The translations under genes were made by a program, and so were the position numbers. Below, in pieces: positions 2,592 through 43,300 of a DNA stretch of 64,000 nt (position 1 is the first letter of the stretch; each line of letters starts with the position of its first letter). Under the pieces are notes generated by a model. The model had not been told where the DNA came from, did no database searches, and was given only the letters and a program-made list of their open reading frames with translations. The stretch is from Parcubacteria bacterium C7867-005 (GTDB lineage Bacteria > Patescibacteriota > Minisyncoccia > Phycocordibacterales > Zambryskibacteraceae), in contig LFCO01000001.1 of NCBI GenBank assembly GCA_001189165.1, positions 156,848 to 220,847 on the forward strand. Direction: 5' to 3'.

Positions 2592-3998
2592 TTATTTCAA
2601 AGTAGAGTTGATTATTTTGATTTTGGACTGATCATCAGGGAAAGTGTTTTTCCAAAATGGTCGGATGACCGCACCAGCTGTTAATATGCCAGGATAATTT
2701 TTCAATATAGCCGTTAGCTCATTTTTATTAATTCCCGCGAGACTACTTCTCAGGTCATTCTCTGCGATGATAGAGGTGGCTATTACCTTGCCGGAAACAA
2801 TAAAATCAAAAACAGTTGCAGTTAGGAGGTCTGGAGCAGATGATTTTGCAAAAGATACATCTAGGGACTCGAGTGTAGATATCATCACAGGCAAAGTGCT
2901 CGTGCTGTTCATCTTTTTTGATGCGAGGAAGTTACTTAGATCGGCTCTTTTAAACATTACTCCATAGAATTCACCGCGTCGGTTCACAACAGCCACATCT
3001 TTGCTTGAAGACGTCTGGGGTAGATCGCTAAAGCTTGTATGAGAAAGCTTGGGGTATAGGATGAAATCTTCAGGAACCTGTTTAACCGCCTCATTTGATA
3101 GTTGATCAGTGAGATCTGCCTCAACTTTGGCCTTAGCAGAAGCAAGATCGGTTGGATTGATCTTTTTTGAAAGACCCACAAAACCACCAGTCATTGGAGT
3201 TTTGGATCTGGCATAGATCGTCTCAAAGCGTGGGTCGCCTTTCAATCCCGGCACTGTGAAATCAGCTAATCCGATATTATATTCAGCCCCAGGTTTGTCT
3301 GCGTATAGAGTCACCTCAAGGGATCCTGGCTCAGTCCCTTTTTTGCCAGGGACAACAATATCTGACTGTACACGATAGATCTTTCCATCAGATGTCTCAA
3401 ATCGAGTGTTTTTAATAAGTTTTTGAGACGCTGAGCTTGTATTGTTATAAACCACTGCTTTACCACTGGATTTTATAGACACTTGTTCTTCACCAGAAGC
3501 CTTTGCTTCAGTGCCCAAATCTTTGGATAATTTGATGACACTAAAGAATAGTTTGCCCGCCTCACCTGACTTGTGTGCCATATACAGATCTTTGTTAAAG
3601 CTTATCTCGTCTGATTTTGGAGTATAAGAAAGAGAGGCGCTTTCATAAAATGCGAAAACAGTTAGACATATAACCAAGACACCCAGAATCGTGCCCATCA
3701 ACAATTTCTTCTTAGGAAACTTAGATCCGCTTTGGACTTCTCCGTTGTATGGGATGTGTTGTTCGATTTTGTATTCTGGAACTCTCACACGTGGTGCGGG
3801 TGATTTTACTTCAGTAAATTGACTATACGAAAAAGAATTAGATTCTTCTTTTGGAGAATCCGAGTTTTTGTTTATTTTGATATCTGAAACTGCATCAATG
3901 AGGTTAATCTTCCTCCGATTTTCTGGAAGTGGAATATTTCTTATGGATTTCCTGTCTGGTCTATCAGGAACCCGGATATCTTCTACATTTCTTGGCAT
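2592..3998 (-). CDS. hypothetical bitopic membrane protein (about 95-aa basic cytoplasmic N-terminus, one TM helix, about 350-aa extracytoplasmic domain)
   Basis: 468-aa ORF; single hydrophobic segment [20 protein letters not shown]; no recognisable catalytic motif; directly downstream of an actin-fold ATPase gene. Confidence 0.55.
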
Positions 3999-4052
3999 AT
4001 TGTTGTAAGTTTAATTGTAACCCAACCACCAAACTACGCAATCTGTGGATGA

Positions 4053-5204
4053 CTAAATCCTCAGATTAGAAAAGTTTGACAGGATTGCGAGCTTCTCATC
4101 CACTAAATTTTCCTGTGGCCACGAGACAATCTCCTTAGTAAAGCTATTATCTTTGCCCAGAACTACGATCTCGTGGCCACTGAAAGCATTCTCGAGGAAT
4201 ATGCCTATCGCATTTTCAAATAATCCCCTCCCAACGAAAAATATTCTGTATTGGTAATTAAGATCAGAAGCAAACTCCTTCAAAAATGATTCACAGGCTT
4301 TTTTGAAAATATTACTAGTCTTGGACAACTCATCTTCAATTTTTGGTGAAATAACCCCATCCAAGACCCCATCAGATAGGAGGGCAAGATATGAACGAGC
4401 AATTTCTGTGGGTATGCCCAAGCTTTTACTAACCTCGTTCACAATGGTTGTACTGCCGACGGGCACAGAAGTGACAACCACGGGGTGATTATTTTTTATG
4501 AATAAGAAATCTGTACTGAAGTCATTCATATTTATCAAAAGCGGAGAATGAGCTGTGGGAAAGGCGTGTGACAAAACCTTCATAAAAGCAAAACTGAAGT
4601 TTTCTAGCACAATATTGTTCTTAATACCCAAAGTACTCGTTATTTCCTTTTTAATTTTTTGAACAAATTTTGATTTAGTCGCACTCATCATAAAATGCAT
4701 ATCCGCTGATACAGCTTTTTTACTTTGAGGAAGCGTGGCCTCGTAGCCATTTATAGTCAGATTGGTTATCTTGGACTCAAAAACGTCGTAGTCATCTGCT
4801 GACTGGTCGATTAATTCTTTTTTGAACACTTTCTCTTCATCGTTCAACACATTTGCCACTGTTTTTTGGTCCAGTATAAAACCCTCGGTATGATTAAGAG
4901 TATTATTTTTTATTTTTGAATATACCCAAGGAGAAGAGAGTGAGACCAGGGCTCTGTTCACATGCTTTTTGCTCCCTATCCTTGAAAGTGCGTCCTTGAG
5001 GCACTTGAGGATTGCTTCTCCCTGTTTTTCCGAGTTATGATCGACTTCTAGAAAATATGAGCTTCTGGAATAAGTGACAATCGTTGGCAGCTTGTCCTCT
5101 TGCAGGTCAACTATAGCTGCACCAACTGAACCAGAAGAAATATCTAAAATTAAAACACTGTCACCAACAAAGGATGTTTTCCAAAACATCCTTATATTGT
5201 ACAT
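4053..5204 (-). CDS. actin-fold (ASKHA) ATPase, PilM/FtsA-like
   Basis: N-terminal phosphate-1-like motif VLILDISSGSVGAAIV and internal LINMNDFSTDFLFI resemble PilM/FtsA; family assignment is inference. Confidence 0.5.
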   Translation of the reverse strand: MYNIRMFWKTSFVGDSVLILDISSGSVGAAIVDLQEDKLPTIVTYSRSSYFLEVDHNSEKQGEAILKCLKDALSRIGSKKHVNRALVSLSSPWVYSKIKNNTLNHTEGFILDQKTVANVLNDEEKVFKKELIDQSADDYDVFESKITNLTINGYEATLPQSKKAVSADMHFMMSATKSKFVQKIKKEITSTLGIKNNIVLENFSFAFMKVLSHAFPTAHSPLLINMNDFSTDFLFIKNNHPVVVTSVPVGSTTIVNEVSKSLGIPTEIARSYLALLSDGVLDGVISPKIEDELSKTSNIFKKACESFLKEFASDLNYQYRIFFVGRGLFENAIGIFLENAFSGHEIVVLGKDNSFTKEIVSWPQENLVDEKLAILSNFSNLRI

Positions 5205-14213: not shown

Positions 14214-16370
14214 TTATACCACAATGTTGACAATTTTACCAGGAACCACGATAACTCGCTTAGGTTCCCCTCCACTTAGCCATTTTTGGACCTCTATGAG
14301 GCTTAGGGCTGTGGTTCTGAGCTCCTCCTCATTCGCCTCTGAGCCAATCTTGAAACTTGCTCTGACCTTGCCATTTATGGTCACTGCGATAGTCACTTCT
14401 TTTGGTGAGAGTTTGGATTCGTCAGCTTCTGGCCAAGGCGAGAGTAGTATGGATTCTTTGTGTCCAAGTCCATTCCAGAGTTCTTCTGCTGCATGTGGAG
14501 CGAATGGTGAAAGCAATTTTAGTAATGCCTCATATTCTTCTTGTGTCACTTTGTCGTGTTTTTCTAATGCGTTTGCATAAATCATAAGTGCCGAGACAGC
14601 AGTATTGAAACCCATAGACTCTATATCGCCAGATACTTTTTTGATGGCATGGTGCATCTCGTATTTTGGTTCAACACTACTATCTGTGGTGATCTTATCC
14701 TTCAATCTCCAGACTCTTTCTAAAAATTTCCTAGTACCGACCAAAGAATCTTCATTCCACGCTATCGCTTGTTCAAATGGACCCATGAACATCTCATACA
14801 ACCTCAAGGTATCTGCACCAAAACGATCTACGATTAAATCAGGGTTTATCACATTGCCCAAGGACTTGGACATCTTTACTCCATCCGATGCAAGGATAAG
14901 GCCGTGCGAGGTACGTTTCTGATAGGGCTCGCTTGTGGGTACCAAACCTATGTCAAACAAAAACTTGTTCCAGAATCTGGAATACAGGAGGTGGAGAGTT
15001 GTATGCTCCATGCCACCGTTGTACCAGTCCACAGGCATCCAATGTTTAAGTTTTTCTTTGGATGCAAATTCACTGTCATTCTTGTCATCCACGTATCGTA
15101 AAAAATACCACGAAGAGCCTGCCCAGTTTGGCATTGTGTCTGTCTCCCTTTTGGCCTCTCCACCACACTTCGGACATTTGGTATTCACCCAAGCTTCTAT
15201 TAGGGCAAGTGGCGACTCCCCTGTGTCTGTTGGTTGATAGTTTGAAACTTCTGGTAGTAATACTGGTAAGTCGGCCTCTGGTACAGGTACAGCTCCACAA
15301 CTAGCGCAGTGGATTATAGGTATAGGTTCACCCCAGTATCTCTGCCTAGAAAAAATCCAATCACGGAGTTTGTATTTAACAACTTTCTTGCCGAAATTCT
15401 CGAAACCCGCTTCTTGATAATTTTCAACTATTGGTAGTCCGTGTTTCTCTGCAAAAGCTCGATCCCTTTCATCACTTGCAGGTACGGCCATGATCGCTCC
15501 GGTACCATACTCTGGCAAAACATATTCGGCTTCCCAAACTGGGATTTTTTCTTTTGTTGCTGGGTTTATGACAAATCTACCAGTAAATCTGTCTTCTTTA
15601 CCTGCAAGCACGATAAAAGTCGCACCAAAGATCGTGTCTGGCCTGGTGGTGAATACCTCTATGTCATCAAATTTTATAAGAGCACCCTCAGAACGGCCAA
15701 TCCAGTTTCTCTGTTGAGCTTTCACTCTCTCTGGATAATCTACTGTATCTAGGCCATGTAAGAGCTTCTCTGCATAATCAGTGATCTTTAACATCCACTG
15801 TTCCTTATCCTTTTTTTCTACCTCTGTGCCACAACGTTCGCATTTACCATCCACCACCTCTTCATTCGCTAAACCGATTTTATCTTTCGGACACCAATTG
15901 ATCGCCATCTTGGCTTTGTACGCGAGTCCGTGCTCGAGAAACTTGAGGAAAAGCCACTGGGTCCATTTATAGTACTTTGGATCAGTGGTGTTTATCTCTT
16001 TGGACCAATCAAAAGAGATGCCCAGGGATTGAATTTGTCTACGAAAGTTGTCTGAGTTCTCTTTGGTGACCACCTTTGGGTCCTTGCCTGTTTTAATCGC
16101 ATAGTTCTCTGTGGGGAGGCCGAACGCGTCCCAGCCTATCGGATATAGCACGTTGTAGCCCTGCATACGTCTTTTGCGTGCGATGACATCCATACCTATA
16201 TACGGACGAGGATGGCCGACGTGAAGTCCGTCACCTGATGGGTAAGGGAATTCTATAAGCGCGTAGTATTTTGGTTTGTCACTGTTATCCTTGGCTTCAA
16301 AGATTTTGTTCTCTGCCCAAAATTTCTGCCATCTTTCCTCTATGTTTTTTGGATCGTACTCACTTTTCAT
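14214..16370 (-). CDS. leuS: leucyl-tRNA synthetase (compact form)
   Basis: PYPSGDGLHVGHPRPYIGMDVIARKRRMQGYNVLYPIGWDAFGLPTENYA (HIGH region) and VKMSKSLGNVI (KMSKS). Confidence 0.92.
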   Translation of the reverse strand: MKSEYDPKNIEERWQKFWAENKIFEAKDNSDKPKYYALIEFPYPSGDGLHVGHPRPYIGMDVIARKRRMQGYNVLYPIGWDAFGLPTENYAIKTGKDPKVVTKENSDNFRRQIQSLGISFDWSKEINTTDPKYYKWTQWLFLKFLEHGLAYKAKMAINWCPKDKIGLANEEVVDGKCERCGTEVEKKDKEQWMLKITDYAEKLLHGLDTVDYPERVKAQQRNWIGRSEGALIKFDDIEVFTTRPDTIFGATFIVLAGKEDRFTGRFVINPATKEKIPVWEAEYVLPEYGTGAIMAVPASDERDRAFAEKHGLPIVENYQEAGFENFGKKVVKYKLRDWIFSRQRYWGEPIPIIHCASCGAVPVPEADLPVLLPEVSNYQPTDTGESPLALIEAWVNTKCPKCGGEAKRETDTMPNWAGSSWYFLRYVDDKNDSEFASKEKLKHWMPVDWYNGGMEHTTLHLLYSRFWNKFLFDIGLVPTSEPYQKRTSHGLILASDGVKMSKSLGNVINPDLIVDRFGADTLRLYEMFMGPFEQAIAWNEDSLVGTRKFLERVWRLKDKITTDSSVEPKYEMHHAIKKVSGDIESMGFNTAVSALMIYANALEKHDKVTQEEYEALLKLLSPFAPHAAEELWNGLGHKESILLSPWPEADESKLSPKEVTIAVTINGKVRASFKIGSEANEEELRTTALSLIEVQKWLSGGEPKRVIVVPGKIVNIVV

Positions 16371-17303
16371 TTATCTTTTTTGAACTGGGTAGAAGTCTGG
16401 GTCTATAGTTCTGATAAAACACTGATACCCTGCTTCATGTTGCCAGTTAGATCCATTTTTCAATCCATACATAGCAGATGAATCAACCATACTGCCGTTC
16501 TTCATCATCTTCGGAGTCGGCTTTTCGAAAGTGGCGCAGAGTTTGAATGATTGACCATCAACTTTTGTATACTCATATGACTTTTCTGTTTTTGGATCTT
16601 TTGGTACAACCCATCCTCCTATGTTGTTTGCATTTAGATCTTCAGTTTTAGCTGGTAGAATACCCTTCTGTTGCCAGTAGCTTGTCACTTGTGACTGAAT
16701 ATTCTGTAAGTTGTTAATCCTCTCTGAATCTTGCCTCTGCATACGCTGTGTTGATGGAGAGCCAATCACCGAAAATCCTACGAGGATAGAACCAACAACC
16801 AATATGATAGAAAATATTCTCCATGCCATTCTATTTTTAGTAGTCAGGGTGCTCCTCAAATCTGCAAGGAAATATCCGAAAACACTACCAGCGACCACAA
16901 ATACCGACAATACTTTCAGCAAGAAGCCGGCGGTCATCTCTTGCCCATCTATGAATAGATAAAGGAGGGTGATGAGGTCAGCCACGAGCACCGCACCAGC
17001 GACAAAGAGGGTGATATAAAGTAACCACCTACGCACAGACCCCTCTCTCAATGTTGGATCTACTGCATATGACTTTTGAAGGAGAGAAGAAAGGATCAAG
17101 AACAAAGGGAAAATGATGATAAGCGTGGCCACTGGAAAGCTGATAGAGCTACTGTAATAGTATCCGTAGTATTCAGTTACTTGCGGGAAGGCAACGTTTA
17201 TCACTCTAAAAAGAAGATTCAGAAGGGCTATGGCTCCTGCATACAAGGAGATCATCGCACCTAATTGTAAAAAGAAATCTCTGATTGTTGTTTTATTGTT
17301 CAT
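16371..17303 (-). CDS. polytopic membrane protein with C-terminal pseudopilin-like motif
   Basis: 4-5 TM helices followed by RQDSERINNLQNIQSQVTSYWQQKGILPAKTEDL, resembling the GspG/type IV pilin D..R..DL..I..AL..Y...G.YP signature (inference). Confidence 0.55.
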   Translation of the reverse strand: MNNKTTIRDFFLQLGAMISLYAGAIALLNLLFRVINVAFPQVTEYYGYYYSSSISFPVATLIIIFPLFLILSSLLQKSYAVDPTLREGSVRRWLLYITLFVAGAVLVADLITLLYLFIDGQEMTAGFLLKVLSVFVVAGSVFGYFLADLRSTLTTKNRMAWRIFSIILVVGSILVGFSVIGSPSTQRMQRQDSERINNLQNIQSQVTSYWQQKGILPAKTEDLNANNIGGWVVPKDPKTEKSYEYTKVDGQSFKLCATFEKPTPKMMKNGSMVDSSAMYGLKNGSNWQHEAGYQCFIRTIDPDFYPVQKR

Positions 17304-17305
17304 AT

Positions 17306-17333
17306 TTGTATTATAGCAAATCCATCATATAAT
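17306..17333 (+). promoter_or_regulatory. sigma70-like promoter TTGTAT-16-TATAAT for small ORF 17362..17490
   Basis: -35 TTGTAT 17306-17311, -10 TATAAT 17328-17333 read directly in the sequence. Confidence 0.55.
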
Positions 17334-17361
17334 TTCTTTACCCTTACCCTGGAGGATTTGG

Positions 17362-17490
17362 ATGGCCGCGAAGAAGAGAAAGCCCTCGTATCGTTCGAGC
17401 AGGACTCGAAGCAGGAGTCAGCGGGGACGGTCGGGTGGCAAGCAGAGGCCGGCAAGTAGCCGCTGTCGCTGCTGTGGTCACTGCCTCTAG
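17362..17490 (+). CDS. 42-aa Arg/Ser-rich basic peptide with C-terminal CRCCGHC cysteine cluster (GC-rich cassette 1)
   Basis: GGAGG (17351-17355) 6 nt upstream of ATG; codon-by-codon translation MAAKKRKPSYRSSRTRSRSQRGRSGGKQRPASSRCRCCGHCL, TAG at 17488; GC-rich island in AT-rich context; not in ORF track (<60 aa). Confidence 0.5.
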   Translation: MAAKKRKPSYRSSRTRSRSQRGRSGGKQRPASSRCRCCGHCL

Positions 17491-17526
17491 GTAGAGGCCG
17501 GGCGATAAGTTCGCCCGAACATGTTC

Positions 17527-17554
17527 GCGCCGGAACGATGTTCCGGCGCTTTTG
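17527..17554 (+). terminator. rho-independent terminator (10-bp perfect stem GCGCCGGAAC/GTTCCGGCGC, loop GAT, then TTTTG)
   Basis: Stem arms 17527-17536 and 17540-17549 are exact reverse complements; T-run follows. Confidence 0.8.
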
Positions 17555-17585
17555 ATACCAAAAAATATTTTGCTACCATAGTGTT

Positions 17586-18002
17586 ATGGTCAGAATACTT
17601 GAATTCCCATCCTTTCCAGCCCCAGAGGAACCAGAGAAAGACAGACTGGATTCAGAAGAAGTCGAGGGTGCCGATGATCCAAAAGTCGTAGATATCTCAA
17701 GCAAGCAAAAGCACATCGAAGGCGGGTTGGTAAACCCACGTCTACAGGCACTGATCGAAAGACTCAAAATCTTGGGCATTGAAGATTTCCCAATCTCTTC
17801 AATAAAATATAGAAAAATAGTCAAACTATTCGAACAAATGCCAGCGCAACGGCAGGCAAGGCTCTTGGCAGAAAACAGAAAGGTTGTAGCTGAATACAGC
17901 GATGAGGACATCAGAACCTGGTTAGAAAGACCAGAAAGCGAATGGGAAGCCCGCCCTGCTTTCTTTTATGCACTCTACGAAAGGTGTCTACTCGGACGCT
18001 AG
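17586..18002 (+). CDS. hypothetical acidic protein (138 aa)
   Basis: ORF with host-like composition; its stop overlaps the ychF stop (convergent); the antisense ORF 17573..17911 is low-complexity and was rejected. Confidence 0.5.
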   Translation: MVRILEFPSFPAPEEPEKDRLDSEEVEGADDPKVVDISSKQKHIEGGLVNPRLQALIERLKILGIEDFPISSIKYRKIVKLFEQMPAQRQARLLAENRKVVAEYSDEDIRTWLERPESEWEARPAFFYALYERCLLGR

Positions 18003-18817
18003 ACCAAAAACTCGATTACATCGCCGTCTTGGACGATGTACTCTTTGCCTTCTATTCGGACCCAGCCCTTCGCACGGGCGGCAGCATATGAACCCGCTTC
18101 CATCAGCTTGTCATAGTGGATGACTTCTGCACGAATAAATTTTTCTTGAAAGTCTGTATGGATAGATTTGCCAGCCTCCGGTGCGGTCGCATTCCTCTTT
18201 GTTGTCCAAGCTCGGCTCTCCTTCTCTCCTGTAGTGAAGAAAGTGATTAGGTCGAGTAGTTCGTACCCAGATTTGATGAGGTTGTCCATACCTGTACCGA
18301 AGATTGGATCTATCTCTATATAAGGTCCAGGGATTTTAGAAAGGACTTCCCTCTTATTCTCTGCAGCTTCTGAAGTATTGATCACATACAAGATGGGCTT
18401 ATTGATCCCCCCCGCTTCGAGCTCCATGTTGATGATCTCTATGTCGAACAGTGGATCAACCTTGTCGTGCACATGGATAATATCTTTATCCTCGAAGATT
18501 CTTACAACTTGGATGATGGCGTCTACTTCACGGATGTTTTGGAGAAACTTATTGCCGAGCCCCGCACCCTCGCTCGCACCCTTCACCAAACCGGCGATGT
18601 CTACGAACTCCACAACAGCAGGGACTACTTTCTTGGACTTACTCATCTCTGCGAGCTTATCCAGGCGCACATCAGGAACAGGGACGATACCTACAGACGG
18701 ATCTATGGTGCAAAAAGGATAGTTCTCTGCAGGCACACTCTTTTTGGTTAGTGCGTTAAAAAGCGTGGACTTCCCCACGTTTGGCAGACCCACAATTCCT
18801 ACGGATAACTTAGACAT
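17999..18817 (-). CDS. ychF: ribosome-binding ATPase YchF (short form)
   Basis: GIVGLPNVGKSTLFNALT P-loop, Obg/YchF G-domain, C-terminal TGS-like GWVRIEGKEYIVQDGDVIEF. Confidence 0.9.
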   Translation of the reverse strand: MSKLSVGIVGLPNVGKSTLFNALTKKSVPAENYPFCTIDPSVGIVPVPDVRLDKLAEMSKSKKVVPAVVEFVDIAGLVKGASEGAGLGNKFLQNIREVDAIIQVVRIFEDKDIIHVHDKVDPLFDIEIINMELEAGGINKPILYVINTSEAAENKREVLSKIPGPYIEIDPIFGTGMDNLIKSGYELLDLITFFTTGEKESRAWTTKRNATAPEAGKSIHTDFQEKFIRAEVIHYDKLMEAGSYAAARAKGWVRIEGKEYIVQDGDVIEFLV

Positions 18818-18920
18818 ATAGCAAGAATAGCTTTTTTTATGTGTTTTTACGAGGCTATTGACATTCGTATATCAGTGTGACATTCTTATGGAAGAACGCC
18901 CACCTCAATCTGGAAGGTCC

Positions 18921-19340
18921 ATGAAGAAGCGTACGCTGGTCTCGTTCGGCATCACCACGGTCGTCATCTTGCTCGCCCTCACTGTCACTCAGACGCTCTG
19001 GAGGGACGTCGACTACAAGATTGAGATCGGCTCGATCATCTCTTTCGAGGATTCGTGGGGAGCAAGCGCGGGAACTATGGGTGAGAATTGTCTCGCCCCA
19101 AGCTTCGGCCGGGCGCGTGTCGTGGCAGTAGACGGCGCTTGGGTCACCCTCGAGGATGCCGGCGCGTACTACTGGTCCTGGACCAACACGCCTGGGTGTG
19201 ACAGGTTCCAAAGAACTCGCCACTGGGTGAGAAAGAACATCATGAACAAGGCCGCGATCGAAGCAAGGGCAGCCAAGCACGACAGCCACTTACAAGAAAC
19301 GAACCTGGCTGACTATCTTGCAGATCAAGAACGCCAGTAA
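18921..19340 (+). CDS. GC-rich small signal-anchored protein (cassette 2, 139 aa)
   Basis: GGAAGG 5 nt upstream of ATG 18921; MKKRTLVSFGITTVVILLALTVTQ signal/TM; strong GC3 bias in this frame; own terminator at 19370. Confidence 0.6.
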   Translation: MKKRTLVSFGITTVVILLALTVTQTLWRDVDYKIEIGSIISFEDSWGASAGTMGENCLAPSFGRARVVAVDGAWVTLEDAGAYYWSWTNTPGCDRFQRTRHWVRKNIMNKAAIEARAAKHDSHLQETNLADYLADQERQ

Positions 19341-19516: not shown

Positions 19517-19855
19517 ATGATAGTGAAAGAGGAAGTTCGTACGGACATGGTGATCGAGTGCACCACGGATGACACTGGGAGATGGCACTTCAGGAAGGCT
19601 GGTGAGGAGGTCGAGGTGACCTTCTGCTCTGGCGCAATCGTCTTCGTCGAAGGTATTCCCGAAGAATCCAAGAAGAGGTTCGCGGTTCGTTCGGACAGGC
19701 CCAGGGCCACCGTCGAAGTTCGTGGTGACAAGATCAGCTTCGCCTTCGGCAGGCAGACAAGGGCACCGTACATCCCCACCCGTGAGAAACACCGCGTGAT
19801 GATCACCGTGAGGTCCGTCCCCCACAAGGGACACAAGGAACGCCAAACCGCCTGA
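19517..19855 (+). CDS. GC-rich hypothetical protein (cassette 3, 112 aa)
   Basis: GAGG upstream of ATG 19517; MIVKEEVRTDMVIECTTDD...; promoter and terminator flank it; the two antisense ORFs were rejected (no signals). Confidence 0.55.
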   Translation: MIVKEEVRTDMVIECTTDDTGRWHFRKAGEEVEVTFCSGAIVFVEGIPEESKKRFAVRSDRPRATVEVRGDKISFAFGRQTRAPYIPTREKHRVMITVRSVPHKGHKERQTA

Positions 19856-22397: not shown

Positions 22398-22709
22398 ATG
22401 GCGGCCAAGAAGAAGCCCATGAACGACGCGCGGAAGTCCGAAGTACTGATCAAGATCCTGAAGTCCATCCTTCTCGCGCAGTTGGAAGAGGAGGGTGATA
22501 ACCTGGCTGATGAAGCCACCAAGAAGATGGCTGAGCTGATCGTCGATGTGTCAGAACTAGCCGGCATCTCCTATGAGGATCTCATCGAGGTGGGGCGCCC
22601 TGTGTGCCACGACCTACTCGATGAACTCATCAGTAACGCGATGGAGATCCTCGGGGATCAGAAGGCCGAGAAGGCCACAGGGTCGACGGGCACGCAAGAA
22701 GGCCGGTGA
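22398..22709 (+). CDS. GC-rich acidic hypothetical protein (cassette 4, 103 aa)
   Basis: GAGGG upstream of ATG 22398; MAAKKKPMNDARKSEVLIKILKSILLAQLEEEGDN...; very high GC3; terminator at 22719. Confidence 0.55.
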   Translation: MAAKKKPMNDARKSEVLIKILKSILLAQLEEEGDNLADEATKKMAELIVDVSELAGISYEDLIEVGRPVCHDLLDELISNAMEILGDQKAEKATGSTGTQEGR

Positions 22710-24945: not shown

Positions 24946-24973
24946 TTGACTTATTAAAAAACACTGGTATGGT
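24946..24973 (+). promoter_or_regulatory. sigma70-like promoter TTGACT-16-TATGGT for cassette 5
   Basis: -35 24946-24951, -10 24968-24973; the 24969 ATG of the track ORF lies inside the -10, so the start was moved to 25008. Confidence 0.5.
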
Positions 24974-25007
24974 GACCTCAGAGCACACCCACACACGGAG
25001 CAAACCC

Positions 25008-25385
25008 ATGCAGTATTCTGATCTCCCGAAAGCGACATTCATCGGCGTAGCCTCGAATGCCCTCGACCTCTCTTTCCTGCTCGAGGAAGCAATGATTGGG
25101 ACATGGGGACCATTCCTCTACTGCGATCGAGCCCGCGGTGGTCCGAACTCTTGCCGAATCCTCAGTCAGGTGGCGACGGAGTACACAGAGACCGCCCCAC
25201 TTGTGCGGGCGATGGGCTGTACAAGCATGGCCATCGATCTCTTTCGAAAGGATTCCTTCTCGAAAGCGCGATTCGATCCAGCAACACCTCCAGCCCAAGG
25301 CGCAGTCAAGAGTTGGGAGGTGAGCCTCGCTAGCGCTACCGCCCATCACTTAGTGATCGTTAAGGCGGTATGGCGCCTTCCTTGA
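25008..25385 (+). CDS. GC-rich hypothetical protein (cassette 5, 125 aa)
   Basis: GGAG 9 nt upstream of ATG 25008; MQYSDLPKATFIGVASNALDLSFLLEEAMIGTWGPFLYCDRARGG...; strong terminator immediately after stop. Confidence 0.5.
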   Translation: MQYSDLPKATFIGVASNALDLSFLLEEAMIGTWGPFLYCDRARGGPNSCRILSQVATEYTETAPLVRAMGCTSMAIDLFRKDSFSKARFDPATPPAQGAVKSWEVSLASATAHHLVIVKAVWRLP

Positions 25386-30660: not shown

Positions 30661-30689
30661 TTGACTATATGGTGGTTTTTATTTATGGT
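30661..30689 (+). promoter_or_regulatory. sigma70-like promoter TTGACT-17-TATGGT for cassette 7
   Basis: -35 30661-30666, -10 30684-30689. Confidence 0.55.
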
Positions 30690-30738
30690 AGTGAGAGGCC
30701 CCCGATGTACATCTGTCCACACATTCCGGAGACAGCGC

Positions 30739-31107
30739 ATGCAGCAACGTACGACCGACGCCGTGGAGCCCACCCAAGTTCGGAGTCAGACCCCCTGCCA
30801 CAGGACCACGATCAGGCTCGATGAGGTGGACACTGACCGCCTCACGAGAATGCTAGGCCACGAATTCCCTGACCCGAGGGTCCAGATCGCAAGCGCGTTC
30901 AACACCGACATCTCCGAGATCAGCGACGAACTCCTCGATCGGATCAACGCGGTGACCAACCACGTCGAGGCTCTCGGTCTCTTCGGAGTTCTGCGCAGGC
31001 ACTACTACGGCGAGAATGACATCAACGCCGTCGTGCGGTGTGTCGCCTGCTTCTGTCGGAAGCCCGCGCCAGAGCCCGCGACTGCTTCGGCCCCCATGGT
31101 GCACTAG
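30739..31107 (+). CDS. GC-rich hypothetical protein (cassette 7, 122 aa)
   Basis: GGAG upstream of ATG 30739; MQQRTTDAVEPTQVRSQTPCHRTTIRLDEVDTDRL...VVRCVACFCRKPAPEPATASAPMVH; terminator at 31129. Confidence 0.5.
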   Translation: MQQRTTDAVEPTQVRSQTPCHRTTIRLDEVDTDRLTRMLGHEFPDPRVQIASAFNTDISEISDELLDRINAVTNHVEALGLFGVLRRHYYGENDINAVVRCVACFCRKPAPEPATASAPMVH

Positions 31108-31160: not shown

Positions 31161-33214
31161 TCTTCTTTATCCAGTCGCTTTTCTAAGAGTCTGATCTCAT
31201 CTCGGATTATAGCTGCTGTCTCAAAGTCGAGATCTCTCACTGCGATTTCCATTTCTTCTCTTTTGGCTTTGATAAATTTCTTTGGATTTTTGTCGAAAAT
31301 CAACTCATCTGTTTCTAATAAAACATTTACAGCGTTGTGGTGCTCACGCTCAAGAGTGTCAGTGATGTCTTTGATTTTTTTCTTGATAGTGATCGGGGTG
31401 ATGCCGTGCTTTTTGTTATAAGCCATCTGTATCTCCCTTCTTCTTTTTGTCTCCCCCATCGCCCTCTCCATCGAGCCGGTGACTGTGTCTGCGTACAAAA
31501 TAACCTTACCTTCTACATTCCTCGCAGCACGACCAATAATCTGGATAAGGGAAGTCTCTGAGCGTAGGAAGCCCTCTTTGTCCGCATCGAGGATACCAAT
31601 AAAAGTAACCTCGGGTAAATCGAGTCCTTCTCGAAGCAAATTTACACCAACCAAACAATCAAAAACCCCTTTACGGAAATCTGTGAGGATCTCTATACGC
31701 TCGATGGTCTTGATCTCACTATGTAGATACCTCGCTTTGATTTTCTTTTCCTTTAGAAATTCGGATAAATCTTCTGCCATCTTCTTGGTGAGGGTGGTAG
31801 CGATCACCCGACCACCCTTTTTAATCGCTTTCTCAGTCTCATTTATAAAATCACTGATCTGTCCATCATAGTTTCCCTTACTCTGTATTGGTCGCACGGT
31901 CACTTCTGGATCGATGAGTCCTGTGGGCCTGATCACTTGCTCGACTACTTTCTTACTGTTTGCTTTCTCATAGACACTTGGTGTAGCTGAAGTGAAGATC
32001 ACCTGACCAATCCGCTTTTCAAATTCATCGAACATGAGTGGTCTATTGTCTTTGGCTGACGGGAGTCTGAATCCATGCTCAACCAATGTTTCTTTCCTTG
32101 ATCTGTCACCGGCAAACATCCCACCGATCTGAGGAATCGTGACGTGGGATTCATCTATGATCGTGAGGAAGTCTGCACTACCGTCTTTCTTGTGGGGGAA
32201 ATACGAGAGCAGTGTGTCTGGTGCCTCACCAACTTTTTTGCCAGAGAAATGCCTGGAATAATTTTCTATGCCGTTGCAGTAACCGACCTCACGAATGAGT
32301 GCGAGGTCGTATGATGTTCTCCTTTTTAATCTATCTGCTTCCAAAATTTTTCCGTCTTTTTTAAATTGTTCTAGCTGTTTGTCTAGCTCCAGCTTGATAC
32401 TCTGTATAGCCTTTTTCACCTGCTCTTCATCGGTGATGAAATGCTTTGCGGGGAAAAGATAGAAAACTTCTGGTTCACTGATCACCGTCCTCGACACTCC
32501 GTCTATACGCTTTATCGCGGAGATATGGCTGTCTTCTATCTCTATCCTATATATAGTCTTCTCTCCTGTGGGCATGATTTCTACTGCATTGCCGAGTGCT
32601 CTAAATGTTCCTGATTTGATATCCGAATTCGTACGAGAGAAATGGATATCGATCAGTTCTCTGATAAAATCCGCACGAGAGATCTTGTCTCCTTTAGAGA
32701 TTTTCATATTCACCTTCTCATATTCTTCTGGTGAACCTAAACCGTATATACAAGATACAGAGGCGACGATGATTACATCCTTTCTGGTTAAAAGAGCCTG
32801 GGTTGAAGCGTGCCTCAGCCTCTCGATCTCTTCGTTGATCATAGCTTCTTTTTCTATATAAGTATCCGTCACCGGCATATATGCTTCGGGCTGATAATAA
32901 TCGTAGTAAGAAACGAAGTAATGAACCGCATTGTCTGGGAAGAATTCTCTGTACTCTTGGGCGAGTTGTGCGGCCAGGGTTTTATTGTGAGCGATGACCA
33001 GAGTAGGTTTACCTATCTGCTCTATGACATTTGCGGCTGTGAAGGTTTTACCCGATCCGGTGACACCTAGGAGGGTTTGTTTGTCCAATCCATCTTTAAT
33101 ACCGGAGACGAGCTCCTTGATAGCTTTGGGCTGATCCCCCGCTGGTTTAAATTCATTTCTGATCTTAAAAACTGACATTTGTCGAATTATACTTTTTTCA
33201 AACCCCAAAAACAA
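31151..33214 (-). CDS. uvrB: excinuclease ABC subunit B
   Basis: FKPAGDQPKAIKELVSG, helicase motifs, C-terminal UVR domain. Likely real start MSVFKI at 33178, with TATAAT (33186-33191) 7 nt upstream and no SD, so possibly leaderless. Confidence 0.93.
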   Translation of the reverse strand: MFLGFEKSIIRQMSVFKIRNEFKPAGDQPKAIKELVSGIKDGLDKQTLLGVTGSGKTFTAANVIEQIGKPTLVIAHNKTLAAQLAQEYREFFPDNAVHYFVSYYDYYQPEAYMPVTDTYIEKEAMINEEIERLRHASTQALLTRKDVIIVASVSCIYGLGSPEEYEKVNMKISKGDKISRADFIRELIDIHFSRTNSDIKSGTFRALGNAVEIMPTGEKTIYRIEIEDSHISAIKRIDGVSRTVISEPEVFYLFPAKHFITDEEQVKKAIQSIKLELDKQLEQFKKDGKILEADRLKRRTSYDLALIREVGYCNGIENYSRHFSGKKVGEAPDTLLSYFPHKKDGSADFLTIIDESHVTIPQIGGMFAGDRSRKETLVEHGFRLPSAKDNRPLMFDEFEKRIGQVIFTSATPSVYEKANSKKVVEQVIRPTGLIDPEVTVRPIQSKGNYDGQISDFINETEKAIKKGGRVIATTLTKKMAEDLSEFLKEKKIKARYLHSEIKTIERIEILTDFRKGVFDCLVGVNLLREGLDLPEVTFIGILDADKEGFLRSETSLIQIIGRAARNVEGKVILYADTVTGSMERAMGETKRRREIQMAYNKKHGITPITIKKKIKDITDTLEREHHNAVNVLLETDELIFDKNPKKFIKAKREEMEIAVRDLDFETAAIIRDEIRLLEKRLDKEDKK

Positions 33215-33224
33215 AGATCCCAGG

Positions 33225-33494
33225 CTACAAAGTAGCCTGGGGTGATTCGGGCGAACCCTTGAAGTTGAGTTCGAGAACCATCGTCTTGTGGCCGATGGGC
33301 TTCTGCTCGCCCCCCTCTCGCTTCACGGCCTCGCGCTCTTCGTAGCACTCATTGCATACGTGAGCGTTCCGAGTGCTTGGGGTGAGGAGACCCCAGATCT
33401 GGTGAGTCGCGCGTTCCTTCTTGCAGTCCTCGCAAGGAATGGGGAAATATCCCCTGAGATGATTGAGGACGTTCGGGATCACAGGAGCAGGCAC
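33225..33494 (-). CDS. GC-rich zinc-ribbon protein (cassette 8, 89 aa, GTG start)
   Basis: GGAGG 4 nt upstream of GTG 33494; CEDCKKERATHQ...17 aa...CNECYEE (two CxxC); GC3 higher on this strand than on the overlapping plus ORF; 10-bp hairpin CCCAGGCTAC/GTAGCCTGGG (33219-33241) plus T-tract downstream on the minus strand. Confidence 0.5.
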   Translation of the reverse strand: MPAPVIPNVLNHLRGYFPIPCEDCKKERATHQIWGLLTPSTRNAHVCNECYEEREAVKREGGEQKPIGHKTMVLELNFKGSPESPQATL

Positions 33495-33533
33495 GGGACC
33501 TCCGTTGGGCGTGGATGGGAGCGGTCTTTGTAG

Positions 33534-33562
33534 AAAATATAACTATTTCAAATACTTTGCAA
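33534..33562 (-). promoter_or_regulatory. sigma70-like promoter TTGCAA-17-TATTTT (minus strand) for cassette 8
   Basis: -35 at 33557-33562 and -10 at 33534-33539 on the minus strand; overlaps the tgt stop codon. Confidence 0.45.
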
Positions 33563-41836: not shown

Positions 41837-42094
41837 TCACTTCGGGACCTTCTCCCCCGCCGAGCCGGTGTCGACCGGAGGCTTCACCGGAGCACCGACC
41901 CCAGCACCTGCGTCGGGGTTCTTCGGAGGCCTGGGCGCGACCCTGTGCGGGATGGAGAACGACCCCGTCACACCCTTGTCCTTCTTGCTCGAGCGCCTCA
42001 CCAGGTAGACACCCAGGATGATGAGCCCGAGGACGACCGAGGTAACGATCTTGTGCTGGGAAAGCAGTGACAGCAGTTCGTCCATCGACGGCAT
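41837..42094 (-). CDS. GC-rich small membrane protein with Pro/Gly/Ala-rich tail (cassette 10, 85 aa)
   Basis: GGAGGG 4 nt upstream of ATG 42094 (minus); MPSMDELLSLLSQHKIVTSVVLGLIILGVYLV TM; very high GC3 on this strand; bulged 9-bp hairpin plus T-run downstream (about 41775-41822); the overlapping plus ORF was rejected. Confidence 0.5.
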   Translation of the reverse strand: MPSMDELLSLLSQHKIVTSVVLGLIILGVYLVRRSSKKDKGVTGSFSIPHRVAPRPPKNPDAGAGVGAPVKPPVDTGSAGEKVPK

Positions 42095-42211
42095 GTGCCC
42101 TCCATGAGGGTGATAGGTTGGTGGGAGATCAAAGCCTATACCCAAAATGCAGTAATGGCCCAAAAAAGTCAAACGGTAGTTAATAACATCAAATTTGTAT
42201 AAAATAAACCA

Positions 42212-43300
42212 ATGACAGATCAAATAAGAAAATTGTTCCTATTTTTAATTATCCCTATTATTTTTCTATTCATTGGGTTTTATGCACGAGATCTAAACCT
42301 TCTATCCGAGAAGGCCGGGTCGACCAAAGAAGCTGGGGTGGTAAAACTCGAGGTGACCACGAAAGAAACCGCTCCAACAGCAAAGACGGGCACAGATTCA
42401 ACTACAGTTCCTCCAACTCCAGCAAAAACTACAAAGAAAGCTACGGCACCAGTAGTATCTACACCTGCTGTACCTACACCCGTTGTATTTACGCCTGTCA
42501 CATCCGGCACAGGAGCATCAAAAGTAGTATTTCTTTCTGATTGGAGTAACTCAACCGGCACTGGTCAATCTGCGGTTGGAGATGGGGGCAAGTGGAGCAT
42601 CTTGGGTAATGTGAACGAGGTTATAGAAAATGAAGGACTTGGCCTCCCTATTAGAGTAGAGAATGTTCTTCGAATCCCCGGTGCTACTGGGGGCACAAAT
42701 AGAAAATCAGGTATGCCACCTATGACCGTTGGTGTAGCTAGGAACTATAGACTCTATTTCAGAAATGATATGCCGTTCCCTACCTCTGACACACAGACCC
42801 ACCCATTCCAAGACGGCAACGCTGGGAGCCAGATCAACTGGGCAGTTATCTTTCATAACACCGTAAGCGCAAATCAAATAAAAATAGGCTTCACTCCATA
42901 CACCCAGAGTAGTGGTTGTACGACTTATTGGTATGGTCCGAACCTTAATAAAGGAACGTGGTATTTACTTGATTGGCAAATCATCTACAGAACAACTACT
43001 ACATTGAATGCTTACATAAGAGTATCCGATGCTTCTGGAAATGTTTTGTATGATTCTGATGATTTTGTTCCAGAAGCTTACTGTGGGTCGTCATCTCTGG
43101 CCACGTTTAACTCAAATAATACTTTTACTGCAAATCCCGGAGGAGGAATAAGCAGATCTGATGGATTAAATATTGGTACAAACGATAACATGCCAGAATT
43201 TGCACCAACATACGGCCACCAAGCGGCAGTTGCCGTAGTCGATGGTTTGCCCCAAGGAACATTTATAGGTCCTTATGGTTCAGTGGCTGGAGAGAATTAA
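42212..43300 (+). CDS. membrane-anchored secreted protein with Thr/Pro-rich linker and C-terminal beta-rich domain
   Basis: N-terminal TM LFLFLIIPIIFLFIGFYA; linker TAPTAKTGTDSTTVPPTPAKTTKKATAPVVSTPAVPTPVVFTPV; C-terminal domain of unknown function with a similar architecture to 22967..24229. Confidence 0.65.
   Translation: MTDQIRKLFLFLIIPIIFLFIGFYARDLNLLSEKAGSTKEAGVVKLEVTTKETAPTAKTGTDSTTVPPTPAKTTKKATAPVVSTPAVPTPVVFTPVTSGTGASKVVFLSDWSNSTGTGQSAVGDGGKWSILGNVNEVIENEGLGLPIRVENVLRIPGATGGTNRKSGMPPMTVGVARNYRLYFRNDMPFPTSDTQTHPFQDGNAGSQINWAVIFHNTVSANQIKIGFTPYTQSSGCTTYWYGPNLNKGTWYLLDWQIIYRTTTTLNAYIRVSDASGNVLYDSDDFVPEAYCGSSSLATFNSNNTFTANPGGGISRSDGLNIGTNDNMPEFAPTYGHQAAVAVVDGLPQGTFIGPYGSVAGEN

Follow-up and report, generated by a model that had tools for sequence, protein, structure and literature searches.

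A candidate microprotein gene with a conserved cysteine cluster between ychF and a DUF5671 gene in Parcubacteria

Positions 17306-17553 of a 64,000-nt stretch of the genome of Parcubacteria bacterium C7867-005 (contig LFCO01000001.1; genome first described in PMC4508563; the entire stretch is referred to below as the window) carry a short G+C-rich unit that probably constitutes a stand-alone gene of a previously unannotated microprotein family in a Parcubacteria subclade, its product being a putative RNA- or ribosome-binding metal-knuckle peptide. That the 42-codon open reading frame (ORF) of the unit is a true protein-coding gene appears very likely; the RNA- or ribosome-binding metal-knuckle function, which is argued from analogy with known proteins, is a tentative assignment. 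Judging from the sequences compared here, at least three Parcubacteria lineages most likely retain the gene at one and the same chromosomal position, and it represents a candidate new small-protein family with a narrow distribution. Conservation follows the frame of the peptide and not an RNA structure.

Conservation of the short reading frame

Across 80 leucyl-tRNA synthetase (LeuRS) loci of GTDB species representatives, the YchF, DUF5671, LeuRS and sigma factor genes are clustered in a conserved arrangement and point in one direction; in most relatives, YchF and DUF5671 are only 10-25 nt apart. In the window, about 700 nt are inserted between these two genes, on the strand opposite to both, and the small-gene unit within this insertion has a GC content of 61-66% vs 42.7% for the window. 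Its expression signals (Table 1) comprise a weak -35 hexamer, TTGTAT, agreeing with TTGACA at three of six positions, a -10 hexamer identical to the consensus, a predicted transcription start near A17340, 7 nt past the -10 box, and a Shine-Dalgarno (SD) sequence, GGAGG, 6 nt ahead of the ATG at 17362. An earlier sequence-only reading of the region had spoken of a perfect expression unit. The -10 box, SD, ORF, two hairpins and terminator are all confirmed, and the imperfection lies in the promoter, which was left unlisted by a promoter scan because of its poor -35 match. The underlying proposal, a self-contained unit expressing a small basic peptide with Cys residues, is nevertheless supported, as the signals are present and the reading frame is conserved.

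Of the 42 residues of the encoded peptide, 14 are basic (10 Arg and 4 Lys; 12 and 5 had been counted initially), and there are 8 Ser, 4 Cys and 1 His. Because the stretch is 63% GC and three other frames across it are also open for 33-51 codons in the ORF list, the open 42-codon frame alone is weak evidence for a gene, and it is the comparative evidence that makes the ORF credible. No DNA match was obtained when the unit was searched by blastn and nhmmer against the 80 LeuRS loci, and homologues were found by scanning the syntenic gap and loci for short, basic, relatively GC-rich ORFs preceded by an SD. In locus L003, whose LeuRS is 74% identical to that of the window, the 194-nt gap between the YchF and DUF5671 genes contains, on the opposite strand, TATAAT, AGGAG, a GTG start, a 33-codon ORF (MAAKKRRSKNYRYHEPRQTHCHCCGRSLKKRRR) and a terminator that includes seven consecutive T. 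A YchF-based metagenome scan covered 80 loci, and ten contig look-ups of YchF homologues added only the lineage of L164-167, which is one strain seen in four samples. Here the YchF is 90% identical, and the matching slot has AAGGAGGTGA, GTG, a 29-codon ORF (MAKKKALRRGARRKYTRCRRCRCCGSVLW), a hairpin and a 16-bp terminator. A further locus, L007 (LeuRS 61% identical), has a 68% GC island with AGGAGGT, a 45-codon ORF (MACKKKVRRSPHSRRDRWERRTAALIGWDTRRHNARLARRRAHRT) and a terminator; it fits in context and N-terminus but lacks the Cys motif. An SD of the AGGAG/GGAGG type lies 6-10 nt 5' of the start codon in all homologues, and comparable terminators follow the ORF in L003, L164 and L007. The full set of features, namely both conserved peptide motifs, the SD, the terminator and the antisense position in the YchF-membrane-protein/LeuRS slot, is found in the window, L003 and L164-167.

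The window and L003 units can be aligned through the -10 box, the C-rich 5' leader and the SD. At the protein level, the L003 and L164 peptides give an ungapped alignment of 28 residues that starts at M1 and runs to the L of C-x-C-C-G-x-x-L, and all three peptides share MA(A)KK at the N-terminus and C-x-C-C-G-x-x-L at the C-terminus. The family core would thus be an approximately 28-residue sequence made of MA(A)KK, a run of Arg and Lys, and the C-x-C-C-G-x-x-L cluster with its CxxCG knuckle. Conservation of these segments is also seen in their codons: codons 2-6 read GCC GCG AAG AAG AGA in the window and GCT GCT AAG AAG CGT in L003, all synonymous, and the Cys cluster is encoded by TGT CGC TGC TGT GGT in the window, TGC CAC TGC TGT GGA in L003 and TGC CGG TGC TGT GGC in L164, so that the motif TGY NNN TGC TGT GGN is kept with third-position variation. 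Pairwise peptide scores among the window, L003 and L164 exceed those of composition-preserving shuffles (p = 0.0008-0.003). When same-strand frames of the three units were paired, the basic-peptide frame scored highest (47-48), most other pairs reaching no more than 34 and one reaching 42. Finally, a six-frame reading of the fetched DNA (1.28 Mb) turned up short basic ORFs with a terminal C.CCG in the syntenic slots and in no other place. Absence of the frame from homologous loci, which would have spoken against the sequence-only reading, is therefore not what was observed, the frame being kept in L003 and L164-167.

Compared with those of L003 and L164, the peptide of the window is longer by 14 residues; the additional codons, a whole number, are inserted in frame within 17382-17439. 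The gene has probably gained these codons in this genome; they are part of a self-complementary G+C-rich segment and encode the Arg/Ser-rich middle of the peptide. No second copy of the segment was found elsewhere in the window. The "protamine/SR-type" character formerly ascribed to the peptide is consequently specific to this genome, as the Arg/Ser-rich tract is lacking in both clear homologues and is not a family trait.

Where present, the unit keeps an identical position and orientation, and its flanks align. The simplest reading of the distribution is ancestral presence followed by repeated loss. A mobile-element origin was considered and rejected: blastn of 17300-18010 against phage and plasmid collections gave no match, none of the 42 matches from two motif scans of viral contigs was related, each being out of frame or something other than a short basic ORF, and the window holds no second copy.

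Several observations weigh against a conserved protein-coding gene. Only three clear lineages are available, and for this reason no real dN/dS test is possible. The L007 peptide is not significantly similar to the others (p = 0.14-0.5 against shuffles). Most relatives of equal closeness lack the unit, and in them YchF abuts DUF5671 (L004-L006, L168-L173 and L175-L180, roughly as close as L003, are all without it); the gene is therefore dispensable. No significant family match was obtained in Pfam, PHROGs, NCBIfam or PADLOC, and the gene was never called by gene callers, including on the source contig. AlphaFold, run on the single sequence, predicted no secondary structure (predicted local distance difference test score 68, predicted template modelling score 0.14). 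Lastly, the GC content at the three codon positions of the peptide frame is atypical (GC1/GC2/GC3 of 0.44/0.74/0.70), and another frame looks more coding-like. The odd pattern can be attributed to the Arg/Ser/Cys/Gly/Lys composition of the peptide, and it is seen again in L164.

The coding-like frame is an out-of-frame acidic reading of 33 codons with a TTG start (17340-17459, frame of 17358), whose GC periodicity of 0.68/0.40/0.75 has a p of about 0.005 by shuffling. It was rejected as a real gene since it is not conserved in the homologues, and its periodicity is explained by the Arg/Ser/Lys/Cys codon composition of the real frame. Caution is warranted when periodicity is used to call very short, compositionally extreme ORFs.

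Resemblance to zinc-knuckle proteins and candidate function

An exact look-up of the four peptides in a collection of 15 billion proteins returned none of them, and phmmer with the 42-residue peptide against 1.84 billion representatives found two long low-complexity repeat proteins only. Pfam and NCBIfam gave no match to the four peptides even at E ≤ 10. Sequence matches in the PDB were few and all below threshold (E = 0.36-7), and nearly all of them were to small zinc-knuckle ribosomal proteins: the window peptide matched bL32 (E = 0.56, phmmer), the L003 peptide eL34 (E = 2.8) and bL32 (E = 5.4), and the L164 peptide uS14 type Z (uS14-Z; E = 2.5-6.8), and a profile of the three sequences matched a TnpB zinc finger (E = 0.36, a 15-residue resemblance) and uS14-Z (E = 0.55). 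Because each member has a different best match and none of the curated profiles fits, this likeness to zinc knuckles appears to be one of design and not of membership.

The shared design consists of an MA-x-x-K-[RK]-[RK] start, an unstructured Arg/Lys-rich tail and then a CxxCG knuckle, as in bL32, uS14-Z and eL34; in addition, a Pro lies 5 residues ahead of the first Cys in the window and L003 peptides, as it does in the aligned bL32. However, the small peptides have 29-42 residues vs 55-61 or more in those proteins, carry an extra Cys inside the knuckle (C-x-C-C-G) that sets them apart from zinc-knuckle ribosomal proteins, and end 3-9 residues past the first knuckle. They have no second CxxC, whereas Cys-containing forms of bL32 (about 55-60 residues) build a zinc ribbon from two CxxC knuckles. 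The family profiles PF01783 (bL32) and PF00253 (uS14-Z) gave no significant match, the two CxxC pairs of uS14-Z are not present in the small peptides, and no canonical bL32-like N-terminus was detected in the window or the fetched loci. The small gene is not a core ribosomal gene, since most relatives do without it. TnpB/OrfB proteins differ more strongly, their zinc ribbon being part of an RuvC-containing protein of about 400 residues, in contrast to a 29-42-codon ORF with its own SD. Bacterial RNA-binding microproteins such as the DUF1127 family (YjiS/CcaF1) and arginine-rich-motif peptides, which are likewise small, disordered and Arg-rich and are encoded by stand-alone small genes, offer a functional analogy; DUF1127 proteins nevertheless show no sequence match to the small peptide and have no Cys cluster. 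Of the two comparisons offered by the sequence-only reading, a small metal-binding ribosomal-like protein is the better one and the best analogy presently available from the sequences.

If the analogy holds, the peptide would be a disordered, RNA-binding polycation. Its most plausible target would be rRNA or the ribosome, to which it would bind much as bL32, uS14-Z and eL34 do through their basic tails and zinc knuckles, and the Cys cluster may ligate a metal, possibly across two peptides. Ribosomes of the candidate phyla radiation (CPR) lack several standard proteins. Association of the peptide with the ribosome, if true, would bear on how CPR ribosomes are constructed and would add a new accessory component to ribosomes that are already unusual. 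Loss of bL32 was reported for Saccharibacteria and some Peregrinibacteria, and Parcubacteria are not listed among the lineages lacking bL32 (PMC9297842). A more specific proposal, according to which the gene encodes a lineage-specific, ribosome- or rRNA-associated zinc-knuckle microprotein that could be a minimal derivative of, or a stand-in for, the N-terminal half of bL32 or uS14 and whose synthesis is throttled by its own mRNA, seems unlikely.

It is also unlikely that the ORF is a non-functional, decayed remnant or truncated paralogue of a zinc-knuckle gene such as rpmF (bL32), rpsN (uS14-Z) or the TnpB zinc finger. The sub-threshold PDB matches to bL32, uS14-Z, eL34 and the TnpB zinc finger and the patchy distribution of the unit would be compatible with such an origin, as would an IS200/IS605-type Y1 transposase gene adjoining the L164 unit. 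Yet the variable best match points to a generic likeness of the "basic tail plus CxxCG" kind and not to a single ancestor, and the Pfam and NCBIfam models of these families found nothing even at the permissive threshold given above. Moreover, the SD, start, stop and terminator are intact in three lineages, between two of which the compared LeuRS proteins are about 74% identical, and decaying DNA is not expected to keep them. A functional microprotein family is the preferred explanation. To our knowledge, genes below about 50 codons are almost never called in CPR (Patescibacteria) genomes, which are small and much studied by metagenomics; the hidden family proposed here is concrete and testable, and its motif, MA(A)KK ... 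C-x-C-C-G, lends itself to searches throughout Patescibacteria.

Predicted fold of the transcript

The plus strand of the unit has a minimum free energy (MFE) of -107.7 kcal/mol with z = -4.5 and an MFE frequency of 0.19, and its predicted fold consists of a 155-nt rod, a small hairpin and the terminator. For the rod alone, z is -3.55 on the plus strand and +0.37 on the minus strand. Pieces of 160 nt taken as a control from the other GC-rich islands of the window mostly have z near 0 (range -3.6 to +1.6; the lowest value belongs to a single piece from the 3' end of an island on the minus strand). The self-complementary segment 17382-17439, which forms the apical stem of the rod, is specific to this genome. 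At its base, the SD pairs with 17484-17488 (probability of being paired 1.0), and in the full transcript the start codon region is paired with the last codons and the stop codon at a probability of about 1.0. As the SD and AUG are sequestered by the 3' end of the ORF, the finished transcript should be poorly translatable.

Such a fold raises the question of whether the unit specifies a structured non-coding RNA, such as a rod resembling 6S RNA, with its central bubble, or another regulatory small RNA, in which case the ORF would be a by-product of high G+C content. Besides the stable, dominant and strand-specific structure, to which the other GC-rich islands mostly have no equivalent, the promoter and terminator of the unit, its 61-66% GC content in a 43% GC genome and the additional open frames agree with this possibility. 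Further points in common with 6S RNA are the transcript length of about 210 nt, a dedicated promoter and terminator, a long irregular hairpin, a purine-rich internal loop and a side hairpin. However, the rod is not formed in the homologous units of L003, L164 and L007. The L003 and L007 units fold unremarkably (z = -1.9 and -2.3), the z-score of L164 is apparently due largely to its 16-bp terminator hairpin, and RNAalifold found no consensus structure of the three units (-12.45 kcal/mol). In addition, the apical half of the rod is the genome-specific insertion, the 5' side of the "bubble" consists of purines only and would make a poor template for 6S-style product RNA, and sequence conservation tracks the codons of one frame. 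A match to a known non-coding RNA had been named as one result that would overturn the sequence-only reading; none was found, as no Rfam family, including 6S (RF00013) and SRP, matched 16800-18100 at E ≤ 1, and two tRNAs were the only Rfam matches of the whole window at gathering score. Since the fold is not conserved, a non-coding RNA was discarded as the main explanation, and it is considered very unlikely. It may be worthwhile to note for similar studies that a strongly folding, G+C-rich promoter-to-terminator unit resembled a non-coding RNA, and that synteny-guided comparison alone showed the frame to be conserved.

For the microprotein gene favored here, the fold may have a regulatory meaning. 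Once the mRNA is finished, the 3' end of the ORF would fold onto the SD and AUG, so that most translation would have to take place ahead of transcription of the 3' end, and a potentially harmful polycation would be kept scarce. In L003 and L007, the SD is mostly paired as well, through different local hairpins.

The least probable of the alternatives is a small toxic peptide silenced by mRNA structure in the manner of type I toxins, or a RiPP (ribosomally synthesized and post-translationally modified peptide) or bacteriocin precursor. In favor of it, the predicted 5'-3' pairing buries the SD and AUG of the complete mRNA, which should be translationally inert, in the way known from hok-type mRNAs; the SD is partly paired in homologues too, the unit is dispensable and patchily distributed, and the peptide is polycationic and Cys-rich, as are some antimicrobial peptides. 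However, the peptide is hydrophilic and not a membrane toxin (no hydrophobic stretch, transmembrane segment, signal or leader peptide was found in the peptide sequences), the long-range pairing is present in this genome only, no maturase, transporter or immunity gene is located nearby (the neighbors being YchF, DUF5671, LeuRS and a sigma factor), PADLOC and NCBIfam gave no match, including to RiPP precursors such as SCIFF/ranthipeptide, and no antisense RNA gene was identified, an insensitive promoter scan of 16800-18200 having listed no minus-strand promoter.

Genomic neighborhood and other G+C-rich islands

Table 1. Features of the small-gene unit and its surroundings (window positions)
Feature	Position	Strand	Basis or remark
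Promoter-like region: -35 TTGTAT (17306-17311), 16-nt spacer, -10 TATAAT (17328-17333)	17306-17333	+	sequence read
Inferred 5' untranslated region: C-rich leader and SD GGAGG (17351-17355)	17340-17361	+	sequence, L003 alignment
Predicted long-range mRNA rod: 5' leader, SD and AUG pair with 3' end of ORF	17342-17496	+	folding; this genome only
Small ORF, 42 codons and stop, MAAKKRKPSYRSSRTRSRSQRGRSGGKQRPASSRCRCCGHCL	17362-17490	+	ORF list; frame conserved in L003, L164-167
Conserved N-terminal motif M-A-A-K-K-R	17362-17379	+	peptide alignment
Hairpin-forming segment encoding Arg/Ser-rich middle	17382-17439	+	folding, peptide alignment
C-terminal Cys cluster C-R-C-C-G-H-C-L (family C-x-C-C-G-x-x-L, containing CxxCG knuckle)	17464-17487	+	alignment, motif scan
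Short G+C-rich hairpin between stop codon and terminator	17498-17516	+	folding
Intrinsic terminator: stem 17527-17549 (10 pairs, 8 G-C; 3-nt loop), then TTTT	17527-17553	+	equivalents in L003, L164, L007
LeuRS gene	14214-16370	-	neighbor
DUF5671 membrane-protein gene, first of LeuRS-sigma cluster	16371-17303	-	divergent neighbor of small gene
138-codon ORF 3' of small-gene terminator	17586-18002	+	overlaps end of ychF by 4 nt
Short YchF gene	17999-18817	-	neighbor beyond 138-codon ORF
GC-rich islands	18888-19340, 19517-19855, 22398-22709, 24969-25385, 30661-31107	+	
GC-rich islands	about 33214-33543, 41837-42223	-	

On the minus strand, an extended -10 element, TGcTATAAT (17310-17318), lies 6 nt before the ATG of the DUF5671 gene, and TGgTATAAT is similarly placed ahead of DUF5671 in L003 (about 3010-3046). 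This short distance suggests that the DUF5671-LeuRS-sigma transcript is leaderless, with a promoter positioned back-to-back with that of the small gene. In relatives without the small gene, ychF and DUF5671 follow each other at the close spacing described above, as if they belonged to one operon.

The 138-codon ORF just past the small-gene terminator has no SD and is preceded by a promoter-like TTGATA-16-TACCAT ending 7 nt before its ATG. Its sole match among 5.8 billion proteins is itself, and no homologue was found in any related locus; it may be a leaderless ORFan gene or no gene at all. As an ORFan that is missing from the other units, it was rejected as a partner gene and falls outside the small-protein family.

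More generally, the junction between YchF and the DUF5671 or other membrane-protein gene is a hot spot of insertion: in about 35 related loci, the intervening DNA measures from 10 to 2386 nt. The contents of the hot spot vary by lineage and, by eye, include an S-adenosylmethionine-dependent methyltransferase-like ORF and repeat-rich acidic proteins; in L164 they include the gene for the 220-residue Y1 (IS200/IS605-type) transposase (3402-4064).

At least seven further islands of 58-72% GC are present in the window (Table 1), each apparently a small stand-alone ORF of about 100-150 codons. In the five ORFs checked, GC3 is 0.70-0.75 vs 0.42-0.53 in core genes, and many of the islands seem, by eye, to have an AT-rich promoter-like region and a terminator. 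No Pfam, PHROG or PADLOC match was obtained for the island ORFs, and searches with two of them among related loci, phages and plasmids found no homologue. The islands look like recently acquired or lineage-specific ORFan cassettes placed between core genes. The ORF at 22398 starts with MAAKKKP (ATGGCGGCCAAGAAGAAGCCC; 22398-22421), close to the MAAKKRKP of the small gene, and the remainder is unrelated, acidic and helical-looking; the resemblance is probably coincidental or due to a shared preference for Ala and Lys codons after the start. A 61% GC island of the same GC-rich antisense kind is found in L007 (1711-1980) between a flavodoxin-like gene and ychF, where the window has GC-rich ORFs of 112 and 150 codons, and it is associated with an 81-codon minus-strand ORF (1766-2011) and a terminator.

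Two of the conserved neighbors vary in domain content as well. YchF has just 271-280 residues in the clade of the window vs about 330-360 in longer YchF proteins, and since the alignment to longer YchF splits at residues 133/140 in several relatives (the window was compared with L007, L008, L012 and L023), this clade seems to have lost the central helical insertion domain by deletion. The LeuRS of the window has 718 residues and no NUDIX match, and LeuRS proteins of 894-958 residues with a NUDIX (PF00293) match among their tRNA-synthetase domains are encoded in L168, L174, L176 and the JGI 3300067032 contig.

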